Assembly: GCA_001771535.1 (NCBI GenBank)
Contig: MEUB01000036.1
Span: 842-64,841 of the forward strand
Length of the DNA: 64,000 bases
Direction of reading: 5' to 3'
Origin: a candidate division WOR-1 bacterium RIFOXYB2_FULL_37_13
GTDB taxonomy: Bacteria; Margulisbacteria; WOR-1; XYC2-FULL-46-14; XYC2-FULL-37-10
Shown here: positions 16,444 to 34,715 of the stretch, in pieces
Layout: every line of letters begins with the position of its first letter
Numbering within the stretch: the first letter of the stretch is position 1
Notes under the pieces: model-generated
Databases searched by the model: none
What the model saw: the letters and a program-made list of their open reading frames with translations, nothing else
What the model was told of the DNA's origin: nothing
Made by a program: the position numbers and the translations under genes

Positions 16444-16475
16444 TTAAAACATGATGTGGTTTTTATTTGGATCAG

Positions 16476-17468
16476 TTAATTATCAGAAGAAAAAATCTTT
16501 AATTTCACTATTCTTTGGTTGTCTGTATCAGCAATATAAATTTCACCGTTTTTGGAAACAGTAATTCCTGTCGGGTTATTAAGCTCCCCTTTTTTATATC
16601 CACGCGCGCCAAAGGAATATAAAAATCTGCCCATTTTATCAAACATCTGCACGCGGTTATTTCTGGAATCAGCAACATAAATATATTTATTGTCTATTGC
16701 GATTCCCTTGGGAGCGTTAAATTCCCCCTTCTCTTTTCCAGCCTTTCCAAAAGAAAAAACGGGCTTCCCATATTCGTCAATTTTTTGGATCCTGTTATTC
16801 CCAGTATCTACAACATAGATTGATCCATCTTGGTCAACAACCACATCAAAGGGGGAATCAAAAAAACCATCACCCCGCCCAAAGCCTCCTATAACTTCTA
16901 CAAAATTCCCCATACTGTCAAATTTTTGGATCCTGTCATTGCCTGAATCAGCAACATAAACATGTCCTGAAGTATCAAGTGCCAACCCTTTTGGATAGAT
17001 AAATTGGCCGTTTTGCTTGCCATAATCGCCAAATTCAAGAACAGGGTTTCCCCTTATATCAAATTTTTGGATCCTGTTGTTTTCCTGATCTGCCACATAA
17101 ATGTAAAAATTGAAATCCACAACAATACCTGACGGGATATTAAATTGGCCGCTTGACGAGCCAAACTTGCCAAATTGATAAGAGAAAATGCCATTACGCT
17201 GCAGTCTTTGAATCCGATTATTGCCTGTGTCTGCGACAAAAAGATCCCCGAGCTGAGTCTCAATATCTCCAACAAAAGAGATATAAACATCCTGCGGAAA
17301 ATAGAATTGTCCGTCTCCTGATCCGGGAAAACCGATTTCATCCACATAAACAATCTCTACCTTATCAGTATGAGACAACGTTGCATTATCCAAAGTGGGT
17401 GCAATACCAAGAGAATATACAGGTAAAACCAAAAAACTCATGAAAATAAAAGCAAACAGATTTCTCAT
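16476..17468 (-). CDS. NHL-repeat beta-propeller protein, secreted
   Basis: Signal peptide plus six repeats of VADxxNNRIQKF(D) with GxxxGQFxxPxGI. Confidence 0.85.
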   Translation of the reverse strand: MRNLFAFIFMSFLVLPVYSLGIAPTLDNATLSHTDKVEIVYVDEIGFPGSGDGQFYFPQDVYISFVGDIETQLGDLFVADTGNNRIQRLQRNGIFSYQFGKFGSSSGQFNIPSGIVVDFNFYIYVADQENNRIQKFDIRGNPVLEFGDYGKQNGQFIYPKGLALDTSGHVYVADSGNDRIQKFDSMGNFVEVIGGFGRGDGFFDSPFDVVVDQDGSIYVVDTGNNRIQKIDEYGKPVFSFGKAGKEKGEFNAPKGIAIDNKYIYVADSRNNRVQMFDKMGRFLYSFGARGYKKGELNNPTGITVSKNGEIYIADTDNQRIVKLKIFSSDN

Positions 17469-19237: not shown

Positions 19238-20038
19238 TCATTGGAAATTGGACATTGGAAATTGGAAATTGTTCCCAAACATCTCTCTCATCTTACCCAA
19301 TACATCTTCACTTTTCAACAAGCTCTCCCCTATTAGGACGGCAGAAAAGCCGGCAGACTTGAGTTCGTCTATTTGAGATTTCTCGCTTATACCGCTTTCA
19401 GAGACCAAAATCCTTGATTTGAGTTCTGGGAATTTATCCAGCAATTTTAAAGAATTATTAAAATCGACTTTTAGAGTATCAAGGTTCCTGTTGTTTATTC
19501 CTACAATATCACAATTTAAAGACAATGCTTTTTCAATATCATATTCATCGTGAGTTTCAAGAAGGACTTGGAGCCCAAGCTCTTTAGCTTTTTCAAGGAA
19601 TCTTGAAAGATCAGGCAATTCTAAAATCCTAGCAATAAGCAGAATTGCATCAGCCCCTGCAATGCGCGATTCTGTTATTTGAAGTTCATCTATTATAAAA
19701 TCTTTGCGGAAAACAGGAAGTTTTACCGCGGCTCTTACCTGTTTTAGAAAGCCTATTTCACCTTGAAAATATGTTTTGTCGGTAAGAACAGATATTGCAA
19801 AGGCACCTGAAGATTCGTACTGTTTGGCAATTGAAACGGGATCAAAGTTTTTGACAATAATACCAGCGGAAGGAGAGGCTTTTTTGATTTCGGCAATAAG
19901 GGAAATTTTATTTTCTTGATTGATGGAAGACTTAAAGTCCCGCAAGTTAGGATCAAACTCCGTCTTAGCTGTTGCCAATCTTTCTTTTAAAGCTTCGATC
20001 TCTTTTCTTTTAGTTAAAATTATTTCATCGAGGATCAT
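19238..20038 (-). CDS. trpC: Indole-3-glycerol-phosphate synthase
   Basis: [29 protein letters not shown] motifs. The last about 11 codons ([11 protein letters not shown]) are encoded by the heptamer repeat. Confidence 0.9.
19240..19271 (-). repeat. Heptanucleotide tandem repeat NTCCAAT (about 4.5 units, read on the minus strand)
   Basis: Plus strand reads ATTGGAA ATTGGAC ATTGGAA ATTGGAA ATTG. Same unit and coding-strand orientation as the array at 33935-33990. Confidence 0.85.
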
Positions 20039-20111
20039 TTAAGGCTATTATAATCAACTTCTTAGCTTGCGTCCATCTCTTATGAAGTTTATAATATATT
20101 AGAGGTGTTTT

Positions 20112-20477
20112 ATGTCAACTTTAGCAGATTATAAAAAGTTTTGGTCAAGAAAATTCAAAGAAGACGAAAAAGCAAAAAAGAAGAAAATAAAACTTTTTAA
20201 GCAGCTTGCATCTGATGCAGCAAATATTTTAATAAAAGATTTTAAAGCCAAAAAGGTTTATCTCTTTGGATCAACTTTGGATGAAAAAATCTTTCATGAA
20301 AAATCAGACATAGATTTGGCAGTTGAAGGATTAAATCCTAAAATACATTTTTCCGCATTATCTGAAATAAAAAAACTGCTTTTTAAAAAAGCAAATGTAG
20401 ATCTTGTCCCTATGGAAGATGCATCGGAAGCACTTAAAGCATTAATTTTCAAAAAGGGAGAAATCTTATATGGCTAA
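20112..20477 (+). CDS. MNT-type nucleotidyltransferase (antitoxin-like)
   Basis: LFGSTL...SDIDLAV minimal nucleotidyltransferase GS-x(n)-DxD motif, 121 aa, overlaps the downstream partner. Confidence 0.75.
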   Translation: MSTLADYKKFWSRKFKEDEKAKKKKIKLFKQLASDAANILIKDFKAKKVYLFGSTLDEKIFHEKSDIDLAVEGLNPKIHFSALSEIKKLLFKKANVDLVPMEDASEALKALIFKKGEILYG

Positions 20478-20943
20478 ATTTGAAGGACTGATTATAGATA
20501 TAGATTTAGAACTTCAAAATCTTGATCGATTAACTATGGAGCTTGGTCAAACAACACAAGAGATAAAAGAGATTCCGGATTATACGCAGATAAGAGCTAT
20601 TGGCAGTATTTTACATGATTTTTATACAGGACTTGAGAAAATTTTTGAAAGAATCGCGTTAACCATAGATGGAGGAGTTCCTGAAGGTGATGATTGGCAT
20701 ATTCAACTTTTACGCCGAATGCTTGCCAATATTCCAGACCGCAGACCTGCCTTATTTACAAAAAATGTTGGAGAGTCTTTAGGCGAATATCTTAGCTTTA
20801 GACATCTTTTTAGAAATATTTATGGTTTTGAATTAAAATGGGAGCGTATGAGTCCTCTTGTTGAAAAATTCCCTTCTGTTTTCAAAGAAGTTGAATCTCA
20901 ACTTATGAAGTTTATAAACTTCATATCAGAAATACAAAATTAA
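20470..20943 (+). CDS. HEPN/HepT-like partner of the MNT protein
   Basis: Genetic pairing with MNT. LSFRHLFRNIYGFELKWE resembles HepT-like FRHxxRHxYxF segments from memory, but the expected His reads Asn. Confidence 0.5.
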   Translation: MAKFEGLIIDIDLELQNLDRLTMELGQTTQEIKEIPDYTQIRAIGSILHDFYTGLEKIFERIALTIDGGVPEGDDWHIQLLRRMLANIPDRRPALFTKNVGESLGEYLSFRHLFRNIYGFELKWERMSPLVEKFPSVFKEVESQLMKFINFISEIQN

Positions 20944-20987
20944 GTATAAGAATCCTCATTCACTTAATACCTTTTTTAAAAAATAAC

Positions 20988-21073
20988 CTGAAATTTTTCA
21001 AAAACCATCATGATACTCTCACAAGTTAGGGAGGAAGGGGCCAAGAGGAAAAGAAATCAAGGAGGGAACAATG
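20988..21073 (+). repeat. Copy A of an about 80-nt repeated 5-prime leader (RBS plus ATGACA start)
   Basis: GAAATTTTTCAAAAACCATCATGATACTCTCACAAGTTAGGGAGGAAGGGGCCAAG...AAGGAGGGAACAATGACA aligns with 25953-26030. Confidence 0.8.
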
Positions 21074-21149
21074 ACAAAGCCTGTAACAAAAACATCAAGA
21101 CCTAACCAAAGAACTCAAAGATGGCACAAGGAAAACCATAAAATGTTTT

Positions 21150-21881
21150 AGGTTGGAGAATGTAGAAATATGGGGGATGAAGAGGACTGCCGTTATGTAT
21201 TTTAGCGAAGCATTATATGACGGGCAGGTAAGGGGATGGAAAAAGATTTAAAAAAAGCAATTGAAAATTTGGAAAGTTTCAAGCTATCAGGCATGAAAGG
21301 GAGTTTTTGGCACAAGAGAAAAAAATGTATGTGGACAAAAGAGCTTTTTGAAAGAGAGGCTGAAAAAATAGTTAATAAACAATTTATTAGAGATATCGTT
21401 GATATTAAGTGAAAAAAACAGGCAAGTAATTTATTTAGAATATGAGATTAACACACAAAAAAAGAATTTTTTGAAAAATACAGTTTTAGGGAAAAGAATC
21501 TTAATAACAAGCCGGCAGGACTGGAATAATGAGGAGATAGTTTTAGCTTATCAGGGGCAAAAGGATGTTGAGTTTGCGTTTAGGCAAATAAAAAATCCAT
21601 TTCATACCTGTATCAGACCTCAATATCATTGGACAGATCAAAAGATAAAAGTTCATGTGCTTTGTTCCATTATTGCATTTACTATTTGCGCTTTAATTGA
21701 AAAGACCGCAAGAGAGAATGATTGTCCTTTTATAATAAACGACATTTTGGATCGCTTATCTTCAATACGAAAAGTAAAATACATAATCCCCAAAACTAAA
21801 AATAAATTCAACATTGAATACGGTATGGAAGAAATCGAAGATGAAGCAACAAGAAAATTATTTGAAGTTTTGATGAAATAA
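21150..21881 (+). pseudogene. Decayed IS4/IS1634-like DDE transposase (C-terminal part, frameshifted upstream)
   Basis: ORF 21399-21881 carries QYHWTDQKIKVHVLCSIIAFTICALIE, typical of IS4-superfamily C-termini. Upstream fragments (RTAVMYFSEALYDGQ, KDLKKAIENLESFK) are in other frames. No intact N-terminus or inverted repeats seen. Confidence 0.6.
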
Positions 21882-22006
21882 TATATTTTTGGTGTATACA
21901 AGCTGTTCTTCTGAAAGTCAACAATGACAAGCCATGCAGGCTTTTTTATTTCTCCAGCAGTAAACTCACGCTAGCCCCGTTTCATAAAAAACAATTGGCT
22001 CTTTCT

Positions 22007-22474
22007 TTACTTAAAATTAAAAGCCACATTTTTTGTATTTTTAGGATCTATTTTAACAGGAAGAATAGCTCCAACCTGCATAAGATGTATAGCATTAAAA
22101 GGTATTACAAACCCATCTTCAACTATATAAGCAGGATACATAGGTGATGATATTTCTAATTTTATATCCATTACAGGCTGATAATTTAATTGGGTTTTTG
22201 ATGTTGCTATGCTTAATATTTCCCCCTTTCCATCAATCCCTTTTTTTAAAATATCTTTATCCCCAACAAAATTCCTCCAAATTACTTTTAATCCCTTGCT
22301 AAAAAACAACAGCAACAAAAGTATAGGCAGTAAAATTATTGCAATATTTATAATAGGAGTTATGCCAAAGTCTGTAATATTGCCAACATTGGAAAAATTC
22401 AAAATGAAAACTGAAGGAAGAACAAAAAAGATCCCAAAAATGACAAAAATAAGTACAAACTTTTCAGATCTCAT
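22007..22474 (-). CDS. Membrane protein, paralog family A (short, one C-terminal domain)
   Basis: Two N-terminal TM helices, then GKGEILSI...QPVMDIKLE...YIVEDGFVIP...VGAILPVKIDPKN. Paralogous to 32879-33739 and the disrupted 29223-32274. Confidence 0.65.
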   Translation of the reverse strand: MRSEKFVLIFVIFGIFFVLPSVFILNFSNVGNITDFGITPIINIAIILLPILLLLLFFSKGLKVIWRNFVGDKDILKKGIDGKGEILSIATSKTQLNYQPVMDIKLEISSPMYPAYIVEDGFVIPFNAIHLMQVGAILPVKIDPKNTKNVAFNFK

Positions 22475-22491
22475 TTTCCCACCTCAAGAAC

Positions 22492-22520
22492 AGCTTAAGC
22501 TAGTAGATATGCTTTGTCAA
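22492..22520 (-). promoter_or_regulatory. Sigma-70-like promoter of family-A paralog (module copy 1)
   Basis: Minus strand TTGACA-17 nt-TAAGCT, then GAGGTGG RBS and ATG. The module is conserved upstream of all three paralogs. Confidence 0.55.
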
Positions 22521-22679
22521 TAAGGGCTTAAGCCCCAAGAACCAATTTTTCCTCCAAAATAAATGAAATTTTTTAAAAATGATAATGATAAGGTACTATA
22601 GATATTGTCAGTTTTTGTTTGAAAAATAATTTTCAGGGAGGCATATTTATTATGGTTATAAGTTTAGGTACTATTGTAA

Positions 22680-23900
22680 ATGACTCAAAGTGGAGCAATT
22701 ATTATTCATAATCTCAAAAAAGCGGATGAAGCAGGAGATAATGACGGAGAGATTGATCAGTTGCCAGAAAATGATGAAGTTCAAGCCGCTTTTCGTCAGT
22801 TTCAATTGGAGCATTTAAATGATACAAATGCCTGGTTAGGGTTTTTGGGAATAATGAAAAGTGAAGATTACTCAGAACCAAAAGAGATTATTCCAGAAGT
22901 ATCAACAGAAGAGTTGTATACTATTTTATCTCAAGCAAGCTCTCCTATTGTTGTTGATACGGGAGCATTAGCTTGGTGCGCTGCGTGCAGAAAAGTGTCG
23001 AAAGCCTTAAATGAAATTATTCATAAAGTTACAATAACTGCGAAAAACAATCCATGTAATCCTATTTTGCTAATACAGCCCCCTTCTATAACAATAAAGC
23101 TTCCTCTAATTACAGGAAACAATGTTTTTGAAATTGCAGTAGAAGATATTTATGGGAATGTTCGCAGTCAAAGCTTCAATGCCAATGGAGGAAGATTGGT
23201 TGATGAAAGCAAACAATATATCGCAGAAGCGCTGCCTTCTGGAAACAATTTACCGCTATTACCTGTAATGATATTTGAATTTTCAGATGTAATAAAGTTC
23301 TCTTACTCAAAAGACTTTTCAGAAAAATTTCATTCTGATGCTGAGTTAAAGCAAAGGATGGATATGCTTAAAGCTTTAGTTTTACAATTAAATACAACTA
23401 TCCCGGGATGTAATATTTCTGGTGTAGAAATCGACCCTTCAAAAGAAAATTCTCTTTTTGCCGGAATTATTCCCGACATGAATGACCCAAATAAACAAGT
23501 AATTTTAATATCAGCCTCTAAGCTTGCCATCTATACAGGGGAAAATGAATTGTTGAGCCTGATGGTTGCTGTGGCTGTCGCAAAAAATTTATATGGCAAT
23601 TTAATTTCAGGGAAAGAAAGCGAATGGAATAACTTGGCAATAAAAGCAAGGCAAAACGAAGTGATCCCTTTTTTAGATTGGCCTATATGGGGATTTAAAA
23701 CCCTTGATAGAGCCTATTTCGTAGGAAGAAACACAGAAAAACTTTTTGTAAACGCTTTGAGCCTGATTTTAGTAATGGGAAAGAAATTCGGTGAAACAAT
23801 AGATGATCCAACAACGCTAATAAACAAAATCCCTCTTTCAGAAGAGCAAAAAAAAGTTTTAAGAGAAATAGAAAAATTTGTCAAAGAAATTTTAAAGTGA
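22680..23900 (+). CDS. Hypothetical protein with thioredoxin-like WCxxC segment (406 aa)
   Basis: PIVVDTGALAWCAACRKVSKALNEI (W at 22974-22976) resembles the thioredoxin active-site stretch VDFWAxWCGPCKxxxPxLxEI. The rest is unrecognised. No SD before ATG 22680. Confidence 0.5.
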   Translation: MTQSGAIIIHNLKKADEAGDNDGEIDQLPENDEVQAAFRQFQLEHLNDTNAWLGFLGIMKSEDYSEPKEIIPEVSTEELYTILSQASSPIVVDTGALAWCAACRKVSKALNEIIHKVTITAKNNPCNPILLIQPPSITIKLPLITGNNVFEIAVEDIYGNVRSQSFNANGGRLVDESKQYIAEALPSGNNLPLLPVMIFEFSDVIKFSYSKDFSEKFHSDAELKQRMDMLKALVLQLNTTIPGCNISGVEIDPSKENSLFAGIIPDMNDPNKQVILISASKLAIYTGENELLSLMVAVAVAKNLYGNLISGKESEWNNLAIKARQNEVIPFLDWPIWGFKTLDRAYFVGRNTEKLFVNALSLILVMGKKFGETIDDPTTLINKIPLSEEQKKVLREIEKFVKEILK

Positions 23901-25951
23901 TAAACATCTCTTTTGCAATCCCTCGTTCTCTTGCAAGCCTCGTCCACGAACCCAAGCAAGGAAAAAACGAAGAAGAAACAGCAATCAAAGCACTTATGCA
24001 AAATGGGTTTTCCAGAGAAGAGGCAATTGCGGTAATCAATGCTTTAGTAAAAATTCATTTTGGAGAGTTTGACACAGAAGGTGAAAAAAGATTTTTAAGA
24101 AATATGCCCGATTTTTTGAAAGTTTTAAAACGGCCCGCCCTCTTTAGAAGCACATTCCCTAATGGCGTGCACGATGAAAATCTAATAAATTCTTTTATTG
24201 ATTTCTTAATAGCTTTTGGAACAATAAAAAAGGGTTCTAAAGATTTAAAAAATTGCTTGAGCTGTCTAACAATGGACAATAATATTCCCCAAGAAATTAG
24301 CCTTGTTGCTGGTTATTTGTTAGACAGAAAAACTTCTTCTAATTTTGAGCTTATACGCCCTGTAAAAATAAATGGTAAGATTTACCTCCAAATTGAGGCT
24401 TCCTATATGAGAAAGGGAATTTCTCTTCCAGGCAACAATGTTTTAGAAGAGGGTTCTGTGCTATACAGAGATGGAAATTGGTTTTTTACTCCCCCGGTAA
24501 ACAACCAAAGAGACATAAGAACTCTTCCCACTATAAGTGGCGTTAGAATTCGTTCTCTTGCCCTTGCTGTTTCTGCCCCCAAACCAGGCAAATCGTTAGG
24601 TCATGAACTGCTCGCAAATCAACCGATGATCCCAATTTATTTCGATGGTCTGCCCAAAAATGCGCCGGAATATATCTCTTTAAGCCCAACAACAAAAGAA
24701 GTTGCCTTTAGTCTAAGCCAAGGGACTTATCTTGTTTTTGAAATAGGAAATCCATTCATAAAAAATTTTAGGGGTGCCGAAATAACTGTTCATTACACTC
24801 TTTTCCAAAAAGATGGAAATTTAGCCCTTAACCCAACCCTACTGCCCTCTTTTCATATAACAACTCCTGACCGCAAGCCTGTCTCATCCTTATCTATCAA
24901 TCCTCCATCTTTGTCTACGGGAGAACTGTTAAGGATCCAAATAGAGGATGAATTCTCAAGAATTTTTGTTGAATACGGAACTGGGAAAACCGGTTTTTAT
25001 GCAGAAGAAAATTTGGCATTAAATGAGCAAAACACAATCCCTCTTGAAATAAGATTGCAGAATGAAAGCTTTGTTATAAATGAATTTGGGGAATTTATTG
25101 TATTTAATGGGGGAGAAGAAAAAAGAAGAGGTTTCCCATATAACTCAAATTACAATCTGGATTTTACTTTGCCAGTAAGCCTCGAAAAAATCAGAAGTCC
25201 CTATGATCATCTTTCAAGATCAATTTTCGACAATAAAAAAGTAGCTGTTTTCTATGAGAGGGCGCCTATGACAAGAGGCCAAACCTTAGCTCATTTAGCC
25301 CATGCTTATTTATTGCTTCCCCCAATACTGCAAAGACAGATAAAAGTCATTAGATTTTCTTATAAAGAAGGACAAAGGAATAAGAGTGCAACATACAGCT
25401 TGCCAAATACAAGAGAAATAAGAATCAATGAAGGATTTTTCTTCCCCTCTCTTTCCTATCTGTCTGAAAAATTCGAAGCTTTTCGTAAAGAATGGGAAGA
25501 AGGGGTTCCTTCTTATGTAAAATCAGAAGCGCAAACTTTGGGGCTCGGATTTTGTGGCAGGCTTGAACTTATGCCTTTCGGTAACATGCCTAAAGGTTAT
25601 TCAGGAACAAAATCATCTGGCGAAAAAGGAGCTCCTTTCATCGTTACCACAAGACCCGCTTCTGGATTAGTAACTCGAGAACCGATAGATGTGGTAAATT
25701 TATATGCTGAAGCGGCTTACATTCTAGCAAGCAGAGAGCCAAATAGATTTTCTGGGTGGGAAAGAACAGATAAAAAAATAACAATTGCGGAAGATGTAAA
25801 AAACTTTCTTCTTGGGATAATAAGGCTCGAATTTGTATACAGCAAAAAACCTTCTCAAGCAACTTTTATCAAGAATCTGACAATCTTAAAAAGTAACGGC
25901 ATAATTACTGAAACTCAAGAAATACGAGCCAAGGCTTTGATGAAAAAATAA
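23897..25951 (+). CDS. Hypothetical protein (684 aa)
   Basis: GTGA start/stop overlap with the upstream gene. No recognisable motif. Confidence 0.5.
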   Translation: MINISFAIPRSLASLVHEPKQGKNEEETAIKALMQNGFSREEAIAVINALVKIHFGEFDTEGEKRFLRNMPDFLKVLKRPALFRSTFPNGVHDENLINSFIDFLIAFGTIKKGSKDLKNCLSCLTMDNNIPQEISLVAGYLLDRKTSSNFELIRPVKINGKIYLQIEASYMRKGISLPGNNVLEEGSVLYRDGNWFFTPPVNNQRDIRTLPTISGVRIRSLALAVSAPKPGKSLGHELLANQPMIPIYFDGLPKNAPEYISLSPTTKEVAFSLSQGTYLVFEIGNPFIKNFRGAEITVHYTLFQKDGNLALNPTLLPSFHITTPDRKPVSSLSINPPSLSTGELLRIQIEDEFSRIFVEYGTGKTGFYAEENLALNEQNTIPLEIRLQNESFVINEFGEFIVFNGGEEKRRGFPYNSNYNLDFTLPVSLEKIRSPYDHLSRSIFDNKKVAVFYERAPMTRGQTLAHLAHAYLLLPPILQRQIKVIRFSYKEGQRNKSATYSLPNTREIRINEGFFFPSLSYLSEKFEAFRKEWEEGVPSYVKSEAQTLGLGFCGRLELMPFGNMPKGYSGTKSSGEKGAPFIVTTRPASGLVTREPIDVVNLYAEAAYILASREPNRFSGWERTDKKITIAEDVKNFLLGIIRLEFVYSKKPSQATFIKNLTILKSNGIITETQEIRAKALMKK

Positions 25952-25952
25952 A

Positions 25953-26030
25953 GTGAAATTTTTCGAAAACCATTATGATACTCTTGCAAGTTAGGGAGAA
26001 AGAGGTCAAGCATTCAAGGAGAAAAAAATG
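25953..26030 (+). repeat. Copy B of the repeated 5-prime leader
   Basis: GAAATTTTTCGAAAACCATTATGATACTCTTGCAAGTTAGGGAGAAAGAGGTCAAG...AAGGAGAAAAAAATGACA; see 20988-21073. Confidence 0.8.
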
Positions 26031-26540
26031 ACACAAACTTCCAGCAAAAGCTGTTTACTTTTGGCAATGAGTCGTCACGCTTTTTATGAAATTAACAGGC
26101 ATATTCCCACCACACAAAAAGGTTTGCCAAAAATCTTGAAAAGAAAATTGTATGGCGATGTAATTCCAAGAATAGAAAGAACTCTTTCCACAGCCGACAC
26201 AATAAAAGCCAAAGAAATAATTTCTATCGTTATTGAAACTGTAATGGATTTTTGGAAAAAAGACCCTTCTTTAGAAACGGCAAAAAAATTATCAGAAGAG
26301 CTAGACAATGTTATGTTAATAATCGAAACAGCACACTTTTTTAATCAAGTTATAGGAGAAAATATAGTTAATTTTTCATCTTTGTCTCCCTGTTTAAAAA
26401 TGTTCTCAAATCTACCGATAATAAGGAGATTAAGTCGTATGGTGGAAGATATTAAAGCAACAGCCCAAAAAAGCCCACCTGATTTCGCAATAACACCTGC
26501 TCTTTGGACTGGTTTCAAATCTTCAGAATACGACAATTGA
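26028..26540 (+). CDS. Hypothetical protein (170 aa)
   Basis: AAGGAG RBS 7 nt upstream. No recognisable motif. Confidence 0.5.
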   Translation: MTQTSSKSCLLLAMSRHAFYEINRHIPTTQKGLPKILKRKLYGDVIPRIERTLSTADTIKAKEIISIVIETVMDFWKKDPSLETAKKLSEELDNVMLIIETAHFFNQVIGENIVNFSSLSPCLKMFSNLPIIRRLSRMVEDIKATAQKSPPDFAITPALWTGFKSSEYDN

Positions 26541-26558
26541 AAAAAGGGGGAATAAAAA

Positions 26559-28661
26559 ATGGCAATGGAAATGGCAGCCTCTGCAATAGCACATGCTAGA
26601 CAACTCGGACAAACAGCTTTAAAAACAGTTTCCCAAGGTCAACACACTGCATCTCTTCGACAACAAGAAGCTTTTTTCCAAGTAATGTTTGATGCAAGTT
26701 TCCCTGCTGCAAAAAGAGTAGCTTACCAACTATATCCAAACAAAACATTGGTTGACAGTCCAAAATATAGGGCAAACTTAGAATTTCAACTGAGAAGAAT
26801 CCCTCCTGCACTACGAACAGCAATTTTCGCTGTATTGCATGCTATGCAACATCCAGTTGTTTTTAATAATATAGTAAACCCTCCAACAAATATACCCCAA
26901 ATAGCAAATTTATTAGGTGTTATTGAATTGGCAGGAAGAATGACGCTTCCATCGCTACTAGATAATCCTCAAATAAGTCCTAATCACTTTTCTATAGTCC
27001 AAAGAAATACTAGCAGAGTTGATTTGACACAATTTGACACCTTTTTTAAAGATGGGAGAATCCCTCGTCAATTTAGAAAAAATGATTTTGTTATAGTCGG
27101 ATCAGGCCCAGGAGGGATAATGACAGCACATATTTTACATGAAAAATACCCAGATGCTCAAATTCTAATAATTGAAGAAGGAGATTATTATCCTGGTAAA
27201 ATTTTCGGCAATTCAACTCCTATAAGAGCTACAGGTGAGTTCTATTCAGAAGGAGGAGTAACTGCTGCTATTGATTTAAAAAATGCAAGTGGAACAGCTG
27301 CCCCTACTGGCAAAGCGGTTGGAGGAAGCATGGAAATTTTTAGTACAACTGCGGCAAGAGTCAGAACCAGCGAGGAGTTTGAGCTTTATGGTTTAAGTAA
27401 ATATATGACTTGGGAAAAATATCAGAAGACAGTTGCTTGGGTAGAAGAGATACATGATGTTGCTGAAAACCCACAGGAAATAATCAACACAATAACCAAG
27501 GAAATGATCAGAGCCGCACAAAATATGCCTAAAGAATCTGGGATTAGAAATGCTGGTCCTACAAAATCATTTAGTGCTCATAAGTGTGGTGGCCTAGGAA
27601 AATGTCCTGTTGGCTGTGATACGGGAGGAAAAGAGACAACAGCTATGGTTCTTTTGCCTGCGCTTTTGGCATCTGGAAAAGTAGGATTAGTTTCAGGAGC
27701 AAAAGTTACTCAAACTATTTTAAGATCAGACAACAGCCCTAAGGCTGTAAAAATATTTTCAATGGAAGGCGTCTCTACCATTGGAATAGAAGATGGTATT
27801 ATTTCAAGTGCCGGTACATTTGGTTCCCCAGTTATAGTACATAACGCAGGGATTCGACTCCCTATGTTAGGCAAAAAATATACTGGGCAAGCAGCATTTG
27901 AACTTTTTGCATTTAATCCAAACAAAAAAATTGATCCCCCTCAACATGTAGGAAAGCCTCAATCTGGTTATATTGAGGTTTACAACACAGATAATGCGTT
28001 AGCTGATCTTGTTGCCACAGTAGACGGATTTATCGGGCTTGGTGAAGGGGCACGTCCTGCTACAGGAATTCTTGCAATGGCAAGGAGACGCTTATATGGA
28101 ACAAATTTAAGAGATTCAATAGAAGGACTTCCTTACACTGGCGTTTTTGGAGGAGTTCTCACTGAAAACATGGAAGATGTTAGGGCCGGTCTTTCAGGAG
28201 GAAATGTATATCCTGGATTGAGTAATATTTTTGGACAAAAAGTGCTAACATACTCATTATCTGAAAGAGATAGAATGAGAAGAAAATTGCTTGCATTAGC
28301 CCTCTTAAAAGTAGCCGCAAATACTCCTCAAGGAGAATATTTAGGAATAGGCCTCAATCATTTTTTTCCAAGTAAAAGCAAGTATGCTAGTTGGGGATTA
28401 TTCCTTTCTTCAGAATTACCTGAATTCGAAAGATATTTATTGCCAAATAAAAAAGTCGACTTGAGTGAAGAAATATTTTTTCATCCTATGGGATCAATGG
28501 GAGATTGTGTCGATAACGAAGGGAAGGTAATAGGCTCAAAAGATTTTTATGTAATAGATGGATCTTTATTTAAGGGCCCTGGAGTAAATCCTACAATTTC
28601 AATATTAACAGTTGCTGCTGAATTAGCTTCAAAAATAAAAAGGAGAAAAAGAATACATTAA
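26559..28661 (+). CDS. GMC-family FAD-dependent oxidoreductase with an about 170-aa N-terminal extension
   Basis: DFVIVGSGPGG dinucleotide-binding motif at about aa 177. C-terminal HPMGSMGD...VIDGSLFKGPGVNPTISILTVAAELA matches the GMC C-terminal signature. CGGLGKCPVGCDTGGK Cys-rich segment. Confidence 0.8.
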   Translation: MAMEMAASAIAHARQLGQTALKTVSQGQHTASLRQQEAFFQVMFDASFPAAKRVAYQLYPNKTLVDSPKYRANLEFQLRRIPPALRTAIFAVLHAMQHPVVFNNIVNPPTNIPQIANLLGVIELAGRMTLPSLLDNPQISPNHFSIVQRNTSRVDLTQFDTFFKDGRIPRQFRKNDFVIVGSGPGGIMTAHILHEKYPDAQILIIEEGDYYPGKIFGNSTPIRATGEFYSEGGVTAAIDLKNASGTAAPTGKAVGGSMEIFSTTAARVRTSEEFELYGLSKYMTWEKYQKTVAWVEEIHDVAENPQEIINTITKEMIRAAQNMPKESGIRNAGPTKSFSAHKCGGLGKCPVGCDTGGKETTAMVLLPALLASGKVGLVSGAKVTQTILRSDNSPKAVKIFSMEGVSTIGIEDGIISSAGTFGSPVIVHNAGIRLPMLGKKYTGQAAFELFAFNPNKKIDPPQHVGKPQSGYIEVYNTDNALADLVATVDGFIGLGEGARPATGILAMARRRLYGTNLRDSIEGLPYTGVFGGVLTENMEDVRAGLSGGNVYPGLSNIFGQKVLTYSLSERDRMRRKLLALALLKVAANTPQGEYLGIGLNHFFPSKSKYASWGLFLSSELPEFERYLLPNKKVDLSEEIFFHPMGSMGDCVDNEGKVIGSKDFYVIDGSLFKGPGVNPTISILTVAAELASKIKRRKRIH

Positions 28662-28800
28662 TAAAATTTATTTCTATTCGATAAAAACATATGCGTATAG
28701 TTTTTATAAACACTCTTCCTCCGTATAGAGTTATATAAAACTCAATTGCCCTTCTATCCAAAATCCTATATAATCCCAAACAAGAAAAGGAGTAATTAAT

Positions 28801-29226
28801 ATGTCAGACAAATTATTGATAATTTCAGTTATAATCGCAGGTTTAATTGTTTCTTTATTTATCGTATTTAATAACAACCCTATAAGTAAAACTGTATCCA
28901 CTTTTATGACAGATATAAACAGAATAAAGATTCCAAACAGTTTCCCCAAAGATATTCCAATTTACCCAAATGCAAAAGTTGAAACCTTATCAATTAAAAA
29001 AAGCCAGACCCTTCTTGTCCTTATTTCCAAAGATAGCCCGACACAAATAAACAACTTCTATGCTTTAGAAATAAAAAAATACGGCTGGACATATACATCA
29101 AAAGACATTAATTTCTATGCGTCAACCAAAGAACATCGTGAATTATTTGTTTCTATATCCAAACTCCCTGAAGAGATAAACAAAAATGGACATTATATAG
29201 TAATCAATGAAACAACTAAAGATTAA
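28801..29226 (+). CDS. Small N-terminally anchored protein, paralog family B
   Basis: N-terminal TM helix, FPKDIPIYPNAK...NNFYALEIKKYGW; paralog of 32372-32872. Its stop overlaps the stop of the convergent family-A pseudogene (TTAA). Confidence 0.6.
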   Translation: MSDKLLIISVIIAGLIVSLFIVFNNNPISKTVSTFMTDINRIKIPNSFPKDIPIYPNAKVETLSIKKSQTLLVLISKDSPTQINNFYALEIKKYGWTYTSKDINFYASTKEHRELFVSISKLPEEINKNGHYIVINETTKD

Positions 29227-30001
29227 AGCGCAGTTTTTTCCCCTGAAGGATTAATATTCCAGGCATTTATAGCTACCCTTTTTGGGTTTTTTGGATCAAC
29301 CTTAACGGGGATAACGGCTCCCAACTGGATAAGAGAAAGCCCCATTAAAGGAATCAAAAATTTGTTTTCTATAATATAATATTCGAGCTTGTCCGTCAAC
29401 TCCCAGTCTTGTCTAATGCAAGATGTCCCTGAAGTAAAGACTGTTTCTAACGCAAAATGTCCCTGAAATGTCATTATCGAGCTTATGAATAAGCTAATAA
29501 TGATGGATCATAAAATAAAAACTGTTTCGAATCTTGAAAATCTTCTAAAAGCTGTGGTGAATTTAGATTTTCAACTAATTGACAAAAAAACTACCTACGA
29601 TTGGATTGATGATATTTTAAAAAGATTCAATTACATGTCTGCTTCAAAGAAACATAAAGGAATTTTAAAGCGTTACATTATGAAAATGACTGGTTATAGC
29701 GGTCGACAAGTTAAAAGGCTCATCAAAAAGCAATTTCAAACTGGAAAATTGACAATAAGTAAAAGTTCTAACCGTTGCAAATTCAAAAATATATACACCA
29801 AAAAAGATATCGCTTTGCTGGTTAAAACGGATAATCTTCACAATCGCTTAAATGGGTTAGCCACTAAAAAGATTTTTGAAACCGAGCATTTTACTTATGG
29901 AAAAAAGAAATATGAAAGGTTAAGTAAAATCTCTATAGCTCATATTTACAACTTGCGAAAAACTACGACATTGATCTTCCCCCCAAAAAGTAGACAGTAA
30001 A

Positions 30002-30862
30002 TTATGCATTCACGAACTTTTTTTCAAAGTTGTCTGGCGACAGAAACCCTATGGACGAGTGCCTTCTCTGTCGATTATAGAACACTTCGATGTAATTGAA
30101 AATGGACTGCCGCGCCTCCTTTCTTGTGGCATATCTTTCAAAATAGACTTGTTCAGTCTTCAATGAATGAAAGAAACTCTCGGTTATAGCATTATCGTAA
30201 CACCTCCCTTTGCGACTCATGCTTTGAATGAAACCATAATTGTTAAGCAATAGTCTCGTATCTCTGGCCGCATATTGAATACCTCGATCAGAATGAAATA
30301 TTATATTTTTGCCTGGCTGGCGGCTCAAGATAGCACCCTTTATGGCCTTGACCACCAATTGGCTTTCTAGGTGCTTTCCCATAGACCATCCGACAATCTT
30401 TCTGGAAAAGACATCAAGAACAACTGCAAGATAAAGCCAGCCCTCCAATGTCCAGATGTATGTAATATCTGATGTCCAGACTCGATTGGCTGATGCTGAA
30501 ACAAAGTTTTGCTTTAGAATATTTGGAGCTACTGGCAAAGTGTGCTGAGAATCAGTTGTCACTCTAAATTTTCTTCTTGTCTTAGCCACAAATTTGCCTT
30601 TCATAAGACGCTCAATCCTTTTTTTATTGTAATGATAACCTTGGCTCTTAAGTTCGGCACAAACTCTGGGCCGACCATAAAGCTCATGGTTTTCAAAAAA
30701 AATCTTCTTGATCTTATCCAGCAAAACCTCATTTTCTGTTTCTCTTTGGCTTTTCTCTCCCCTTAGCCATTTGTAATAGCCGCTTCGTGATACATCTAAC
30801 AACTGGCACATCTTCTCAACCGGAAAGTCGAAGCATTGCTCTCTTACAAACATAAATCTCAT
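30002..30862 (-). CDS. IS3 transposase OrfB (DDE integrase core)
   Basis: WTSDITYI, HSDRGIQY, CYDNAITESFF DDE motifs. Expressed as an OrfAB fusion by -1 frameshift. Confidence 0.9.
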   Translation of the reverse strand: MRFMFVREQCFDFPVEKMCQLLDVSRSGYYKWLRGEKSQRETENEVLLDKIKKIFFENHELYGRPRVCAELKSQGYHYNKKRIERLMKGKFVAKTRRKFRVTTDSQHTLPVAPNILKQNFVSASANRVWTSDITYIWTLEGWLYLAVVLDVFSRKIVGWSMGKHLESQLVVKAIKGAILSRQPGKNIIFHSDRGIQYAARDTRLLLNNYGFIQSMSRKGRCYDNAITESFFHSLKTEQVYFERYATRKEARQSIFNYIEVFYNRQRRHSSIGFLSPDNFEKKFVNA

Positions 30863-31158
30863 CTCGGTTGTTTGGAGAAGATGGCCACTGCTTTTTTTAA
30901 AATATCTCGCTCCAACCTGGCCTCTGCCAACTCTTTTCTTAAACGCCTGATTTTAAGAGATTCCTCAATCCCTCCGCTTGTTTCTCCGTCTTCTCCCTCT
31001 CTTCGATCACGTTTTTGCCATCCATACAGCGTACTCGATGACACTCCTAAATCTTTAGCAATTGAGGCTACAGGTCGCTTGCTGGTATTAATTAAATCCA
31101 GCGTTTCCCTAATGAAGTCCTTATCACACCGTTTATATGGTCCTTTCTTTTTCCCCAT
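30859..31158 (-). CDS. IS3 transposase OrfA (HTH)
   Basis: 99 aa, VASIAKDLGVSSSTLYGWQK helix-turn-helix and leucine-zipper-like C-terminus. Confidence 0.9.
   Translation of the reverse strand: MGKKKGPYKRCDKDFIRETLDLINTSKRPVASIAKDLGVSSSTLYGWQKRDRREGEDGETSGGIEESLKIRRLRKELAEARLERDILKKAVAIFSKQPR
30892..30899 (-). promoter_or_regulatory. Programmed -1 ribosomal frameshift site of the IS3 element
   Basis: Minus strand A AAA AAA G inside ...ILKKAV of OrfA. The -1 frame continues into OrfB (KKSSGHLLQTTEMRFMFVREQ...). Confidence 0.75.
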
Positions 31159-32291
31159 AAAATCCCCCCCCTCTAATATATTATCAAAATCTCTAATTAC
31201 TGTGTCTACTAAAAGGGGGGAGGGTCACATATCGTGACAGATCAATTACTTTCACCAAGACTAATCCAAGGAAAATTAATATCGGCGAAAGAAAACGCCC
31301 TGAACCTCAAGGCAAGCCAGGCTATATCCGCGTAGATACTGTGCATCAGGGCGATTCCGACAAACAAAAAGGGGTCTATTATATAAATACTGTCGACGAA
31401 GTTACCCAATGGCAGGCAATTGCCGCTGTAGAAAAAATATCTGAAACATATTTACTCGAGGCTCTCTTAGGCTTGCTCAATCAATTTCCATTTGAAATCA
31501 TTGAATTTCATAGCGACAATGGTTCAGAATACATCAACAGACAAGTCGCAGAACTTTTAAACAGACTTTTAATTAAACTTACGAAATCTCGAGCTAGACA
31601 CTGTAATGATAACGCTTTAGTAGAGTCAAAAAATGGGGCTGTAATTAGAAAATGGATGGGCTATGCTCATATTCCTCAGAAACATGCCCAAGACATCAAC
31701 AAATTCTTTAAAAAATATTTTAATTTATATTTAAACTACTACAGACCTTCTATTTTCCCTGAAATTGTATTTTCTGCAAAAAGAAAAGAGGTCAAAAAAT
31801 ACAGATATGAGAATACAATGACCCCTTTCGCAAAACTAAAATCCATTTTTGAATACAAAAAGTTCCTCAAAAAGAATACTTCCGTCGTTGACTTAGAATT
31901 GTTTTTAAGCAATGATAGTCCTAATGAGTTTGCTGAAAAGGTGGTGAAGGCTCAAGATTGTCTCTTTAATGGCATTTCTACCTAACCCTTTTTCAGGGAC
32001 ATTCTTGCATTAGAAAATACTCTCCCTTTTCACGAAGCTCCTGATCACTAACCAATGAAGTCCACAGAATCTTAAGAACAGAAATTATAAAAGGAAGAAA
32101 AATCAAGATCGACACAACAGGAATAGCTACGGGTAAAATATCACTCGGTCGCGAACCAAACCCCATAGCAACTCGGCTTCTATACATATCCAAAAAAACA
32201 GCTGGAATTATACCAAAAAAAGCAACGGTAAAAATAAAAATAGAAAAAATAATTATAAATTTTGCTGATCTCATCTCTCCACCTCAATAAC

Positions 32292-32341
32292 AGCTTAAAT
32301 TAGGAGAAATGCTTTGTCAATAAAGGTTTAAGTAGTATAAT
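32292..32341. promoter_or_regulatory. Bidirectional promoter module copy 2 (back-to-back, -35 boxes overlapping)
   Basis: Minus: TTGACA (32320-32315), 17 nt, TAAGCT (32297-32292) for the disrupted paralog. Plus: TTGTCA (32314-32319), 16 nt, TATAAT (32336-32341) for 32372. Confidence 0.55.
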
Positions 32342-32371
32342 GCCTATACATTTAGTAAAAGGAGTTGTCAT

Positions 32372-32872
32372 ATGAATAAAGGTTTATTGATTGGCGTCAT
32401 AGTTTTGGGATTGATCGCATCTCTGTTTGTAGTCTTTAATTACAACTCAATGTTCGGTCTAGTCGTAGGTTTTATGACAGGGGGAGAAACTACTTGGAAC
32501 AACAATGCTTTAGGAACTAACCAGGGAGGCATAATTCACTTAGCCGCAATGCCGGGGAAAGGAATAAATCCCCCAAAACAGTTTCCAAAAGATTTACCTG
32601 TATATTCAAACAGTAAAATTATTACTCTGCATATAGATACAACACAAACTCCAAACTTGATCAATATAATAATGGAATCTGACGATGATGCAAATACAGT
32701 ACACAATTTTTATAAATCTGAAATGCAAAAGAATGGATGGGCGTTGAAAAGTGAAAATGGTTCAGTTTTTATGACAGATTGGACAAAAGACATCCGCAAA
32801 TTGAGCATTATGATATCTCAAGGCAAACGGGGAAATCCAAATACGCCAGGATGTTCTATAATGATTAATTAA
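32372..32872 (+). CDS. Small N-terminally anchored protein, paralog family B
   Basis: TM helix, QFPKDLPVYSNSK...HNFYKSEMQKNGW; paralog of 28801-29226. AAAGGAG RBS. Confidence 0.6.
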   Translation: MNKGLLIGVIVLGLIASLFVVFNYNSMFGLVVGFMTGGETTWNNNALGTNQGGIIHLAAMPGKGINPPKQFPKDLPVYSNSKIITLHIDTTQTPNLINIIMESDDDANTVHNFYKSEMQKNGWALKSENGSVFMTDWTKDIRKLSIMISQGKRGNPNTPGCSIMIN

Positions 32873-32878
32873 GCCTTA

Positions 32879-33739
32879 TTATATAGGCTTTTGTATACTT
32901 CCAGTCATAGCTATCATGACATGTGTTGGATCATTGTTGTCTATTTCACAAGGATATACAGCTCCCACTCTAATAAGTTGTAAGGCAACATCCGGCAAAG
33001 GCATCTCTTTATCAAGAACATATGGAGTTATTCCTTCTCCGGTTACCTCATATTTAAGAGAATAAACTTTTTGACCATTTTTTGTCTTTTCCGCATCGGC
33101 AAAACCCATTATCCTAGCCTGGCCTTTTTTTCCATTAACCACAACGCCTCGCTCCACATTCCCAGCAACCCCTAAATTTTGAAAATTTACAGGCATCCCT
33201 TGCATTATGGGTTGTCCTTGAAAATTTTGCGCAGTTCTTTTTTCTGAAGGATTAATATTCCAGGCATTTATAGCTACCCTTTTTGGGTTTTTTGGATCAA
33301 CCTTAACGGGGATAACGGCTCCCAACCGGATAAGAGAAAGCCCCATTAAAGGAACCATAAATTTGTCTTCTACAATATAAGGAGGCTGGTTTGAGGTCGA
33401 CACTTCCAGTTTCAGTTTCATCATCGGTTGATTGTTTATTTGCGTTCCGGTCTGAATAACCTCCAAAATTCGCGCTTGCCCGTCAACTCCTTTTTCACGA
33501 AGTTCTTGATCACTAAATATCATTTTCCAGATTATTTTAATAGGGCCAATCAAAGAAGGAATAACAAAAAAAATAATCGCAATAATAAATACTATCGGCA
33601 AAAAATCTATCGGACGCAAACTAAGTCCCATATCGACTCTACTTCTATAAATATTCAGAAAAACGGCCGGAAGAACACCAAAACAAACAACAATAAAAAC
33701 AAAAACAGAAGAAATAATTGCAAATTTTACTGATCTCAT
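32879..33739 (-). CDS. Membrane protein, paralog family A (long, two C-terminal domains)
   Basis: 286 aa. The N-terminal TM pair is about 60 percent identical by eye to the 31993-32274 fragment. 33244-33389 is nearly identical in DNA to 29243-29388. The second domain repeats the pattern (GQARIMGF...LIRVGAVYPCEIDNNDP). Confidence 0.65.
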   Translation of the reverse strand: MRSVKFAIISSVFVFIVVCFGVLPAVFLNIYRSRVDMGLSLRPIDFLPIVFIIAIIFFVIPSLIGPIKIIWKMIFSDQELREKGVDGQARILEVIQTGTQINNQPMMKLKLEVSTSNQPPYIVEDKFMVPLMGLSLIRLGAVIPVKVDPKNPKRVAINAWNINPSEKRTAQNFQGQPIMQGMPVNFQNLGVAGNVERGVVVNGKKGQARIMGFADAEKTKNGQKVYSLKYEVTGEGITPYVLDKEMPLPDVALQLIRVGAVYPCEIDNNDPTHVMIAMTGSIQKPI

Positions 33740-33756
33740 TTTTTCACCTCAATGAC

Positions 33757-33806
33757 AGCTTAAAATAGTAGAACTGCTTTGTCAATAAGGGTTTAAGAAG
33801 TATAAT
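33757..33806. promoter_or_regulatory. Bidirectional promoter module copy 3 (drives 32879-33739 and rsmH)
   Basis: Minus: TTGACA (33785-33780), 17 nt, TAAGCT (33762-33757). Plus: TTGTCA (33779-33784), 16 nt, TATAAT (33801-33806), only 9 nt before the rsmH ATG 33816. Confidence 0.5.
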
Positions 33807-33815
33807 GTTTATTAT

Positions 33816-34715
33816 ATGGATACATTCCACCTGCCTGTAATGGCAAAAGAGATAGTTAATTTTCTCTCCCCTCTTAACGGAAAAACAATCGTCGATTGTA
33901 CGGTGGGTGGAGGGGGACACATCTCAAAACTAATATCCAATATCCAATTTCCAATTTCCAATGTCCAATGTCCAATGTCCAATTTCCACATCATAGCTAT
34001 CGACCAAGACCAGGAAGCTCTTGAGTTTGCTAAAAAACGATTGGCTAAATATGACAACATTGAATATATCCATGACAATTTTGGCAACTTGGCAAATATA
34101 ATAAAAGAGTCTGTTGATGCTTTTCTCTTTGATCTTGGCATTTCATCATACCAGATAGACCAGGCTTCCCGCGGTTTTAGCATACGATACGATGCGCCTC
34201 TTGATATGCGAATGGACAAAAGTAAACAGACATCCGCTCGCGAAATAATCCACAATTCAAGCGAGGATGAATTAGCGCAAATTTTCAAAGAGTATGGTGA
34301 AGAGCGGTTTTCAAGAAGAGTTGCCCGCGCGATTGTCTTGGAAAGAGACAAAAAAGAGATAAACACAACATTTGAGCTGAAAGATATAATAGAGAAAGCA
34401 ATCCCCACATGGAAAAAGAGAGAGTCTGTTACCCGCATATTCCAAGCACTCCGAATTGCTGTTAATTCAGAGCTTGATGTTTTAAAAAAAGCTCTGGAAT
34501 CAACAATCCCTTTACTTAAACCGGAAGGGAAAATAATCGTAATGTCGTATCATTCATTGGAAGATCGAATTGTTAAATGGTTTTTCAGAGATAAAGCTAA
34601 AAATGGTATACTTAATATACTTACAAAAAAGCCTGTTCTTGCGACAGAAGAAGAGACTGCAATTAATCCAAGGGCAAAAAGCGCTAAGTTGCGGTGCGCT
34701 GAAAAGAACAACTAA
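33816..34715 (+). CDS. rsmH: 16S rRNA (cytosine1402-N4)-methyltransferase RsmH/MraW
   Basis: HLPVM, DCTVGGGGH, AIDQDQEA, DLGISSYQID, SYHSLEDRIVK motifs. Contains the heptamer-encoded insert [18 protein letters not shown]. Confidence 0.9.
   Translation: MDTFHLPVMAKEIVNFLSPLNGKTIVDCTVGGGGHISKLISNIQFPISNVQCPMSNFHIIAIDQDQEALEFAKKRLAKYDNIEYIHDNFGNLANIIKESVDAFLFDLGISSYQIDQASRGFSIRYDAPLDMRMDKSKQTSAREIIHNSSEDELAQIFKEYGEERFSRRVARAIVLERDKKEINTTFELKDIIEKAIPTWKKRESVTRIFQALRIAVNSELDVLKKALESTIPLLKPEGKIIVMSYHSLEDRIVKWFFRDKAKNGILNILTKKPVLATEEETAINPRAKSAKLRCAEKNN
33935..33990 (+). repeat. Heptanucleotide tandem repeat NTCCAAT, about 8 units, in frame inside rsmH
   Basis: ATCCAAT ATCCAAT TTCCAAT TTCCAAT GTCCAAT GTCCAAT GTCCAAT TTCCACA. 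Confidence 0.9.

Follow-up and report, generated by a model that had tools for sequence, protein, structure and literature searches.

A four-gene block in an insertion island of a WOR-1 bacterium pairs orphan proteins with a candidate iron-sulfur-type GMC flavoprotein

In a 64,000-nucleotide (nt) stretch of DNA from candidate division WOR-1 bacterium RIFOXYB2_FULL_37_13 (contig MEUB01000036.1, positions 842 to 64,841 of the forward strand; hereafter the window, numbered from its first letter), we analyzed a block of four genes encoding the proteins P1 to P4. The reading that we favor, with a probability of about one half, is that the block is lineage-specific cargo of an insertion island and consists of two gene pairs, P1-P2 and P3-P4, with P4 being an enzyme of the iron-sulfur (Fe-S) branch of the GMC flavoproteins. 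This branch comprises the catalytic subunits of the bacterial flavin adenine dinucleotide (FAD)-dependent glucose, fructose, and sorbitol dehydrogenase complexes. The four genes are as follows.

22680-23900, + strand: P1, 406 amino acids (aa)
23897-25951, + strand: P2, 684 aa, GTG start
26028-26540, + strand: P3, 170 aa
26559-28661, + strand: P4, 700 aa

The open reading frame (ORF) calls bear out the four co-directional genes of these lengths that a first-pass annotation had described, as well as the overlap between the P1 stop and the P2 start within the tetranucleotide GTGA (23897-23900). The intergenic spacing is -4 nt between P1 and P2, 76 nt between P2 and P3, and 18 nt between P3 and P4. 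All four ORFs are real genes. In this genome of 36% G+C, 406 open codons are expected by chance with a probability of ~9e-14 at a stop frequency of 0.071 per codon, and the codon usage of P1-P4 is core-like, with a clear frame-0 preference, and indistinguishable from that of the core genes in the window. Transmembrane or signal segments were found in none of the four proteins, and no paralogues of them occur elsewhere in the window. PADLOC returned no match for P1-P4 and PHROGs returned noise only, while tblastn and pattern scans with P1, P2, P3, and the N-terminal extension of P4, in various combinations, found nothing in phages, plasmids, viral contigs, or metagenome contigs.

Both Pfam GMC domains of P4 score above their cut-offs (GMC_oxred_N, PF00732, 42.1 bits, cut-off 23, E 1.2e-10; GMC_oxred_C, PF05199, 25.3 bits, cut-off 24.6), and the GSGPGG, HPMGSM, VIDGSLF (residues 665-671), and GVNPT signatures are all present, in agreement with the earlier description of P4 as a GMC-type FAD oxidoreductase. 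The following features of this domain are used below.

27081-28661, + strand: P4 GMC domain, with Pfam matches above gathering scores
27099-27116, + strand: GSGPGG, residues 181-186
27585-27617, + strand: putative Fe-S loop CGGLGKCPVGC, C343-x5-C349-x3-C353
28482-28484, + strand: catalytic His642, in HPMGSM (residues 642-647)
28587-28589, + strand: Asn677, in GVNPT (residues 675-679)

A word-indexed search of 5.8 billion proteins returned only two GMC relatives of P4, at 24-25% identity. Alignment A1 was made of P4 and the relatives P0004 and P0005, and a metagenome scan using patterns derived from A1 found 72 relatives (loci L022-L093) at no more than 28% identity. P4 has four cysteines in 700 residues, three of which form the C343-x5-C349-x3-C353 loop, and these three residues, together with His642 and Asn677, are invariant in A1. 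When the PDB was searched with the three-sequence profile, 6a2u_B and 7w2j_A were placed in the top group, with the best stretch spanning the cysteine loop. In this search C343, C349, and C353 aligned column for column with Cys212, Cys218, and Cys222 of 6a2u_B, and His642 and Asn677 aligned on His476 and Asn519. Non-Fe-S GMC oxidases in the same alignment have no cysteine at the three loop columns. The loop is present in most of the 72 metagenomic relatives, some of which carry a full ferredoxin-type CxxCxxCxxxCP. In the FAD-dependent glucose dehydrogenase of Burkholderia cepacia (BcGDH), Cys212, Cys218, and Cys222 ligate a 3Fe-4S cluster at the protein surface, through which electrons travel from FAD to the cytochrome subunit, and His476 and Asn519 are the catalytic pair (PMC6719666). 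Because P4 carries the three-cysteine loop of dehydrogenase catalytic subunits, it is more likely an electron-relaying Fe-S-type GMC dehydrogenase than an oxidase, and the name flavin oxidase given to it at first pass is probably wrong.

P4 shares with the BcGDH alpha subunit (6A2U chain B) and the large subunit of Gluconobacter fructose dehydrogenase (7W2J chain A) the GMC signatures, the His/Asn pair, and the C-x5-C-x3-C loop, and its block resembles complexes of the BcGDH type in having a small protein-coding unit of ~170 aa directly N-terminal to or upstream of the catalytic domain. However, its identity to them is at most ~25%. The His105 that binds FAD covalently in BcGDH corresponds to Ile260 in P4, and Cys213, which forms a disulfide to the gamma subunit, corresponds to a glycine. 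The block also differs from these complexes in lacking a partner with a twin-arginine translocation (Tat) signal, and the window holds no multihaem cytochrome c subunit, its ORFs of 80 aa or longer all lacking the CxxCH motif of cytochrome c. Neither a twin-arginine motif nor a hydrophobic signal was found at the N-termini of P3 and P4, and P4 is presumably cytoplasmic.

In P4 the Rossmann strand starts near residue 175, and the N-terminal extension of about 170 aa noted at first pass is therefore real.

26559-27080, + strand: P4 N-terminal extension, residues 1-174

A model of low confidence shows the extension as helical. At first pass it had been called unexplained, and for this a positional explanation was found in the slot of the gamma subunit. 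PF13618 (Gluconate_2-dh3) is the family of gamma, or 'hitchhiker', small subunits. No relative, whether from the protein database (two) or from metagenomes, aligns to residues 1-140 of P4, but many of them are themselves extended at the N-terminus, with Pfam matches to PF13618 at E 6e-8 and 8e-8. Using a gamma-like profile built from the extensions of the relatives, we scored the 54 full-length metagenomic relatives that have upstream DNA on their contig. A gamma-like, PF13618-type domain was present in 50 of them, fused in 15 and encoded by the adjacent upstream gene on the same strand in 35. The Rossmann GxGxxG lies at residue ~160-215 in the fused relatives and at residue 181 in P4, and the gene upstream of the relative P0005 is gamma-like (E 2e-16). 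The P4 extension, then, occupies a slot that is normally filled in this clade, and P3 lies where the unfused small-subunit gene usually lies. The sizes are also alike, with fusions of 140-215 residues or upstream genes of ~165-215 aa in the relatives and a 174-residue extension plus a 170-aa P3 here. The difference from PF13618 gamma subunits is that neither the extension nor P3 has significant sequence similarity to them or a twin-arginine signal. Against a 52-sequence gamma profile, the extension scored 4.0 bits, a value reached by 9 of 500 shuffled sequences, with an hhalign E of 0.15, and P3 scored nothing.

P3 is basic. It had no match in family libraries, the PDB, plasmids, or viral contigs, the 5.8-billion-protein and the 1.84-billion-protein databases not having been searched with it, and a comparison of P3 and of the P4 extension with PDB sequences gave nothing. 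P3 was also considered as a paralogue of the P4 extension, which was rejected (E 1.4). Among the relatives of P4, loci L022-L093 make up a large and apparently uncharacterized set of GMC proteins in which the Fe-S cysteine loop occurs with an N-terminally fused PF13618 gamma-like domain. The fused relatives inspected have no twin-arginine start, whereas L058, the only unfused gamma protein inspected, begins with a Tat-type N-terminus (SRRGLITGA). The other gene neighbors of the relatives are heterogeneous, with an aldehyde dehydrogenase in seven loci.

The proteins of the first pair had no relatives in the searches made. P1 is a strict orphan; it matched only itself in the word-indexed search of 5.8 billion proteins and in a full HMMER search of 1.84 billion representatives. 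It is acidic (pI 4.95) and soluble, with four cysteines, two of them in a WCAAC motif.

22887-23063, + strand: thioredoxin-like N-terminal half-motif of P1, residues 70-128, with WCAAC at 22974-22988

The stretch VVDTGALAWCAACRKVSKALNEI (residues 91-113 of P1) had been likened at first pass to the active-site strand and helix of thioredoxin, within a much larger protein. The resemblance is real but partial and marginal. Residues 70-128 align to the beta1-alpha1-beta2-CxxC-alpha2-beta3 part of thioredoxin, with the segments PIVVD, TGALA, WCAAC, and RKVSKALNEI in register, so that the CxxC would start a helix after a beta-strand. The Smith-Waterman score of P1 against E. coli thioredoxin is 61, compared to 30.5 +/- 4.4 for shuffled sequences, none of which reached 61 in 1000 trials. 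Likewise, thioredoxins made up 10 of the 11 matches (E up to 10) in a PDB search with P1, all in a single register and all sub-threshold (best E 0.033). The family thresholds were not reached. Pfam PF00085 scores 13.4 bits on the whole protein (E 0.08) and 15.8 bits on the fragment (E 0.014) against a cut-off of 23.5, the match covers only positions 5-48 of the 103 in the profile, and TIGR01068 scores 13.3 against a cut-off of 96.8. The C-terminal half of thioredoxin (the cis-Pro loop, beta4-beta5, and alpha4) gave no signal in P1, with a score below the shuffle mean. P1 differs further from thioredoxin in its active site, CAAC rather than CGPC, and in the placement of the thioredoxin-like stretch within a 406-aa protein without relatives. 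The AlphaFold2 model of P1 from its single sequence had a mean predicted local distance difference test (pLDDT) score of 34.9 and was unusable.

P2 is basic (pI 9.2) and soluble, and also matched only itself in the 5.8-billion-protein search; tblastn gave no match to it in phage, plasmid, viral, or metagenome contigs. The description of P2 and P3 as ORFans outside known families holds within the collections searched for each. Residues 25-60 of P2 weakly resemble a UBA/YoaH-like helix bundle (UBA/UPF0181 matches, E 0.017-0.14), and Pfam searches of P1 and P2 as six sub-fragments yielded nothing beyond these faint thioredoxin and UBA/YoaH hints. A relationship between P1 and P2 was rejected (E 1.2). 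P2 has three cysteines, two of which form CLSC (residues 120-123, 24254-24265). The i, i+3 spacing thus involves two of the four cysteines of P1 and two of the three of P2, for which we estimate a chance of ~0.01-0.03 per protein from the cysteine counts, and CxxC is present in only 4 of the 51 long ORFs of the window. Each of the two motifs is therefore unlikely to have arisen by chance. Ten single nucleotide polymorphisms separate the assemblies L003 and L006 from the window, all of them in P2 (24221-24476, residues 109-194) and in two patches, residues 109-131 and 186-194. Six of the ten are non-synonymous, and one of the changes, S122G, lies inside the CLSC motif with both cysteines kept; ten differences are too few to judge purifying selection.

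The block lies in an insertion island, as the first-pass annotation had proposed. The borders of the island are given below.

20039-33815, no strand: insertion island, 13.8 kb, rich in insertion sequences (IS), between trpC and rsmH
19238-20038, - strand: trpC, left border of the island
33816-34715, + strand: rsmH, right border of the island

In two Saganbacteria metagenome-assembled genomes (MAGs; L017 and L018), whose TrpC is 55-58% identical to that of the window, trpC lies next to rsmH-ftsL-gltX with a gap of ~17 bp and no insertion. Because the same gap measures 13.8 kb here, the interval 20039-33815 was taken as an insertion island. With neighboring gene families assigned by Pfam, its content comprises an MNT/HepT pair, a degraded IS1634, P1-P4, an IS3 inside an rve-type transposase gene, and several small membrane proteins that are paralogous to one another. 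The IS remnant that had been placed upstream of the block was recovered at 21399-21881, where it matches positions 345-471 of the 483 in the IS1634 transposase (E 9e-22). Composition gave no signal of foreign origin, with G+C content and codon usage matching those of core genes. All contigs encoding P1 or P4 come from one near-identical Rifle-aquifer population, and the sequence of the block is identical in >10 assemblies.

The leaders of the block and the spacer between P2 and P3 bear on its division into two pairs.

22556-22579, + strand: promoter-like 24-nt motif AAATAAANTGAAATTTTTYRAAAA, upstream of P1
22652-22711, + strand: upstream ORF (uORF) MVISLGTIVNDSKWSNYYS, 19 codons, overlapping the P1 start in another frame
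25943-26033, + strand: P2-P3 spacer, a copy of the IS1634 leader, ~90-nt direct repeat of 20978-21076

The motif AAATAAANTGAAATTTTTYRAAAA has three copies in the window (20981-21004, 22556-22579, and 25946-25969), compared to 0.12 expected by chance. All three are in the island; one precedes P1, another precedes P3, and the third stands at the start of the IS1634 remnant. Every copy lies 80-125 nt upstream of a start codon and comes before an ATGATA that is possibly an extended -10 element. Over 68 nt the spacer shares 87% identity with the IS1634 leader, and the window has no third copy. The promoter-like motif, the AAGGAG Shine-Dalgarno sequence, and the start of P3 (ATGACA) all lie within the spacer. 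A promoter of its own is therefore likely for P3-P4, and IS activity may have brought the two gene pairs side by side. A 26-codon basic ORF (21071-21151) begins at the end of the degraded IS1634 leader. The first gene had been started at 22652 in the first-pass annotation, but this ATG is out of frame and opens the uORF, which has a strong Shine-Dalgarno sequence (GGGAGG, 22636-22641); P1 starts at 22680, immediately after an in-frame TAA. No Shine-Dalgarno sequence is recognizable at P1 and P2, in contrast to the AAGGAG or AGGGGGA found 7-8 nt ahead of P3, P4, and the next gene. No terminator-like site was found on the + strand inside the block. The leaders of P1 and P3 were screened for riboswitches and structured elements, with no credible Rfam match at E up to 1 and folding z-scores of 0 to +1.7; one microRNA-family match fell inside P3 (E 0.61, 22 bits, cut-off 54).

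Several points weigh against the favored reading. The identity of P4 to GMC proteins is low, and its suggested placement in the clade relies on motifs and on a sample of relatives biased by the A1-derived patterns. Binding of an Fe-S cluster by P4 is predicted from its sequence, and the AlphaFold2 model of P4 from the three-sequence alignment (mean pLDDT 32.9) is as unusable as that of P1, which leaves no fold-level check. The closest relative, P0004, has no gamma-like neighbor. Because neither the extension nor P3 matches the gamma profile significantly, the gamma assignment is positional only, and an extension together with a separate small upstream protein is a pattern not seen in the relatives. 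Finally, the 24-nt motif shared by P1 and P3 could equally reflect co-regulation of one functional unit.

This last point leads to the view of the first-pass annotation that P1-P4 together constitute a self-contained accessory system for redox chemistry or modification, acting on a common substrate. The genes are co-directional and tightly spaced with no internal terminator-like site on their strand, a rare motif precedes both P1 and P3, cysteine-based motifs occur in P1, P2, and P4, and the thioredoxin-like match of P1 exceeds chance in the pairwise test. Even so, we consider a single system unlikely. The block was seen in a single population only, none of the 72 GMC relatives has P1-, P2-, or P3-like neighbors, and the P2-P3 junction is IS-derived. 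Moreover, the thioredoxin match of P1 remains below threshold and limited to half of the fold, and the Fe-S loop of P4 argues against an oxidase using O2.

The nature of P4 itself can be read in another way. It would then be a conventional GMC oxidase, dependent on O2 and of the cholesterol-oxidase type, and its three cysteines would be structural or incidental. When P4 alone was used as the query, its best PDB matches were indeed cholesterol oxidases (E 4e-5), which have the His/Asn pair and GVNP in common with it, and weak NCBIfam matches also include cholesterol oxidase. However, these PDB matches cover only the C-terminal 57 residues, and the top rank of 6a2u_B and 7w2j_A with the three-sequence profile, best over the cysteine loop, points the other way. 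That three of only four cysteines lie in one loop and are conserved across relatives also speaks against an incidental role, and we regard an oxidase of this type as improbable.

It is more doubtful still that the block is functionally inert, a relic or a set of fast-drifting genes moved by IS activity. The IS-rich island is missing from relatives, P1 and P2 are orphans, and they lack the recognizable Shine-Dalgarno sequences that are strong at P3, P4, and the next gene, all of which would fit such cargo. On the other hand, all four ORFs are intact in a genome of 36% G+C and have the codon usage and frame signal of core genes, P4 keeps all its catalytic and cofactor motifs, and more than ten assemblies agree on the sequence. 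The apparent frameshifts of P4 in assembly L003, the sole frameshifted copy, are located at a scaffold gap with Ns. Defence and toxin modules are often found in islands rich in IS elements and toxin-antitoxin genes, and the block adjoins the MNT/HepT toxin-antitoxin pair and IS elements in a variable island, but an unrecognized anti-phage defence or toxin module is scarcely credible, as the four proteins have no PADLOC or PHROG family match, searches of phage, plasmid, and viral collections came up empty, and GMC dehydrogenases are not known to take part in defence.

Returning to the favored reading of two gene pairs, P4 would be an extremely divergent cytoplasmic member of the Fe-S-bearing GMC branch. 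It would oxidize the CH-OH group of a sugar or alcohol by hydride transfer to FAD. By way of the surface 3Fe-4S cluster it would then hand single electrons on to an acceptor other than O2, either a protein or a quinone-like compound. The P4 extension, P3, or both may be the counterpart of the gamma subunit (PF13618), diverged beyond sequence recognition and without a Tat signal, as their position suggests. P1 and P2 are translationally coupled orphans, possibly thiol-redox or metal-binding proteins, and IS activity possibly joined the two pairs, as hinted by the IS1634-leader copy at their junction. We also considered that P1 (CAAC) and P2 (CLSC) are the electron acceptors of the P4 Fe-S cluster and replace the cytochrome c subunit, which is a long shot. 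If this were true, the proteins would form a cytoplasmic relay in which electrons from an alcohol or sugar reach a dithiol by way of FAD and 3Fe-4S. Its logic would be the one known from ferredoxin:thioredoxin reductase, with a GMC dehydrogenase as the driver. Such a relay would add a previously undescribed type of partner for this enzyme class, drawn from proteins without known relatives.

Other features of the island and its surroundings were recorded in the same analysis and are listed below.

20076-20094 and 20912-20930: 19-nt inverted repeats, 89% complementary, flanking the MNT/HepT (NTP_transf_2 / HepT-like) pair at the left island edge
22007-22474, 29223-29474, 31993-32274, and 32879-33739: small membrane/secreted proteins, first-listed loci
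28801-29226 and 32372-32872: small membrane/secreted proteins, further loci
29485-31985: region of the rve-type transposase gene with the apparently inserted IS3
30859-31158 and 30002-30862, - strand: orfA and orfB of the intact IS3
29485-30000 and 31341-31985: parts of the rve-type transposase gene split by IS3
19240-19271: heptanucleotide tandem array (ATTGGAA)x4.6 at the trpC/trpB junction
33932-33988: heptanucleotide tandem array (AATNTCC)x8.1 in the 5' part of rsmH
13240-17468: genes for 1067-aa and 330-aa proteins upstream of trpB

The small membrane/secreted proteins fall into two paralogous families spread over the island, with some copies truncated. Their DNA repeats are 75-94% identical, and only faint DUF3592 matches were found. 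The two heptanucleotide arrays are mutually reverse-complementary and enclose trpC and the island. They are absent from the related MAGs L017 and L018. In another assembly (L011), the rsmH array is one unit shorter (7 nt, frame-shifting), and rsmH is called at 246 aa compared to 299 aa. These arrays could reflect phase variation or serve as a recombination substrate. The 1067-aa and 330-aa proteins have no Pfam match but are kept in the Saganbacteria MAG L018 at 44% and 60% identity, respectively; they are lineage-wide unknowns, in contrast to the orphans of the island.

The practical importance of these findings is modest, since no function can be transferred to the orphans and no long-standing question is opened or closed. 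The three orphans illustrate that the island cargo of uncultured lineages is hard to assign even against billions of sequences. The analysis also draws attention to the large uncharacterized set of GMC proteins with a fused gamma-like domain. Most of what is known of Fe-S GMC dehydrogenases concerns sugar dehydrogenases of Proteobacteria that are periplasmic and linked to cytochromes, and these enzymes find use in direct-electron-transfer biosensors. If the favored reading is true, P4 would bring these enzymes into a candidate phylum that is sister to the Cyanobacteria, in a form that would be cytoplasmic, Tat-less, and cytochrome-less.

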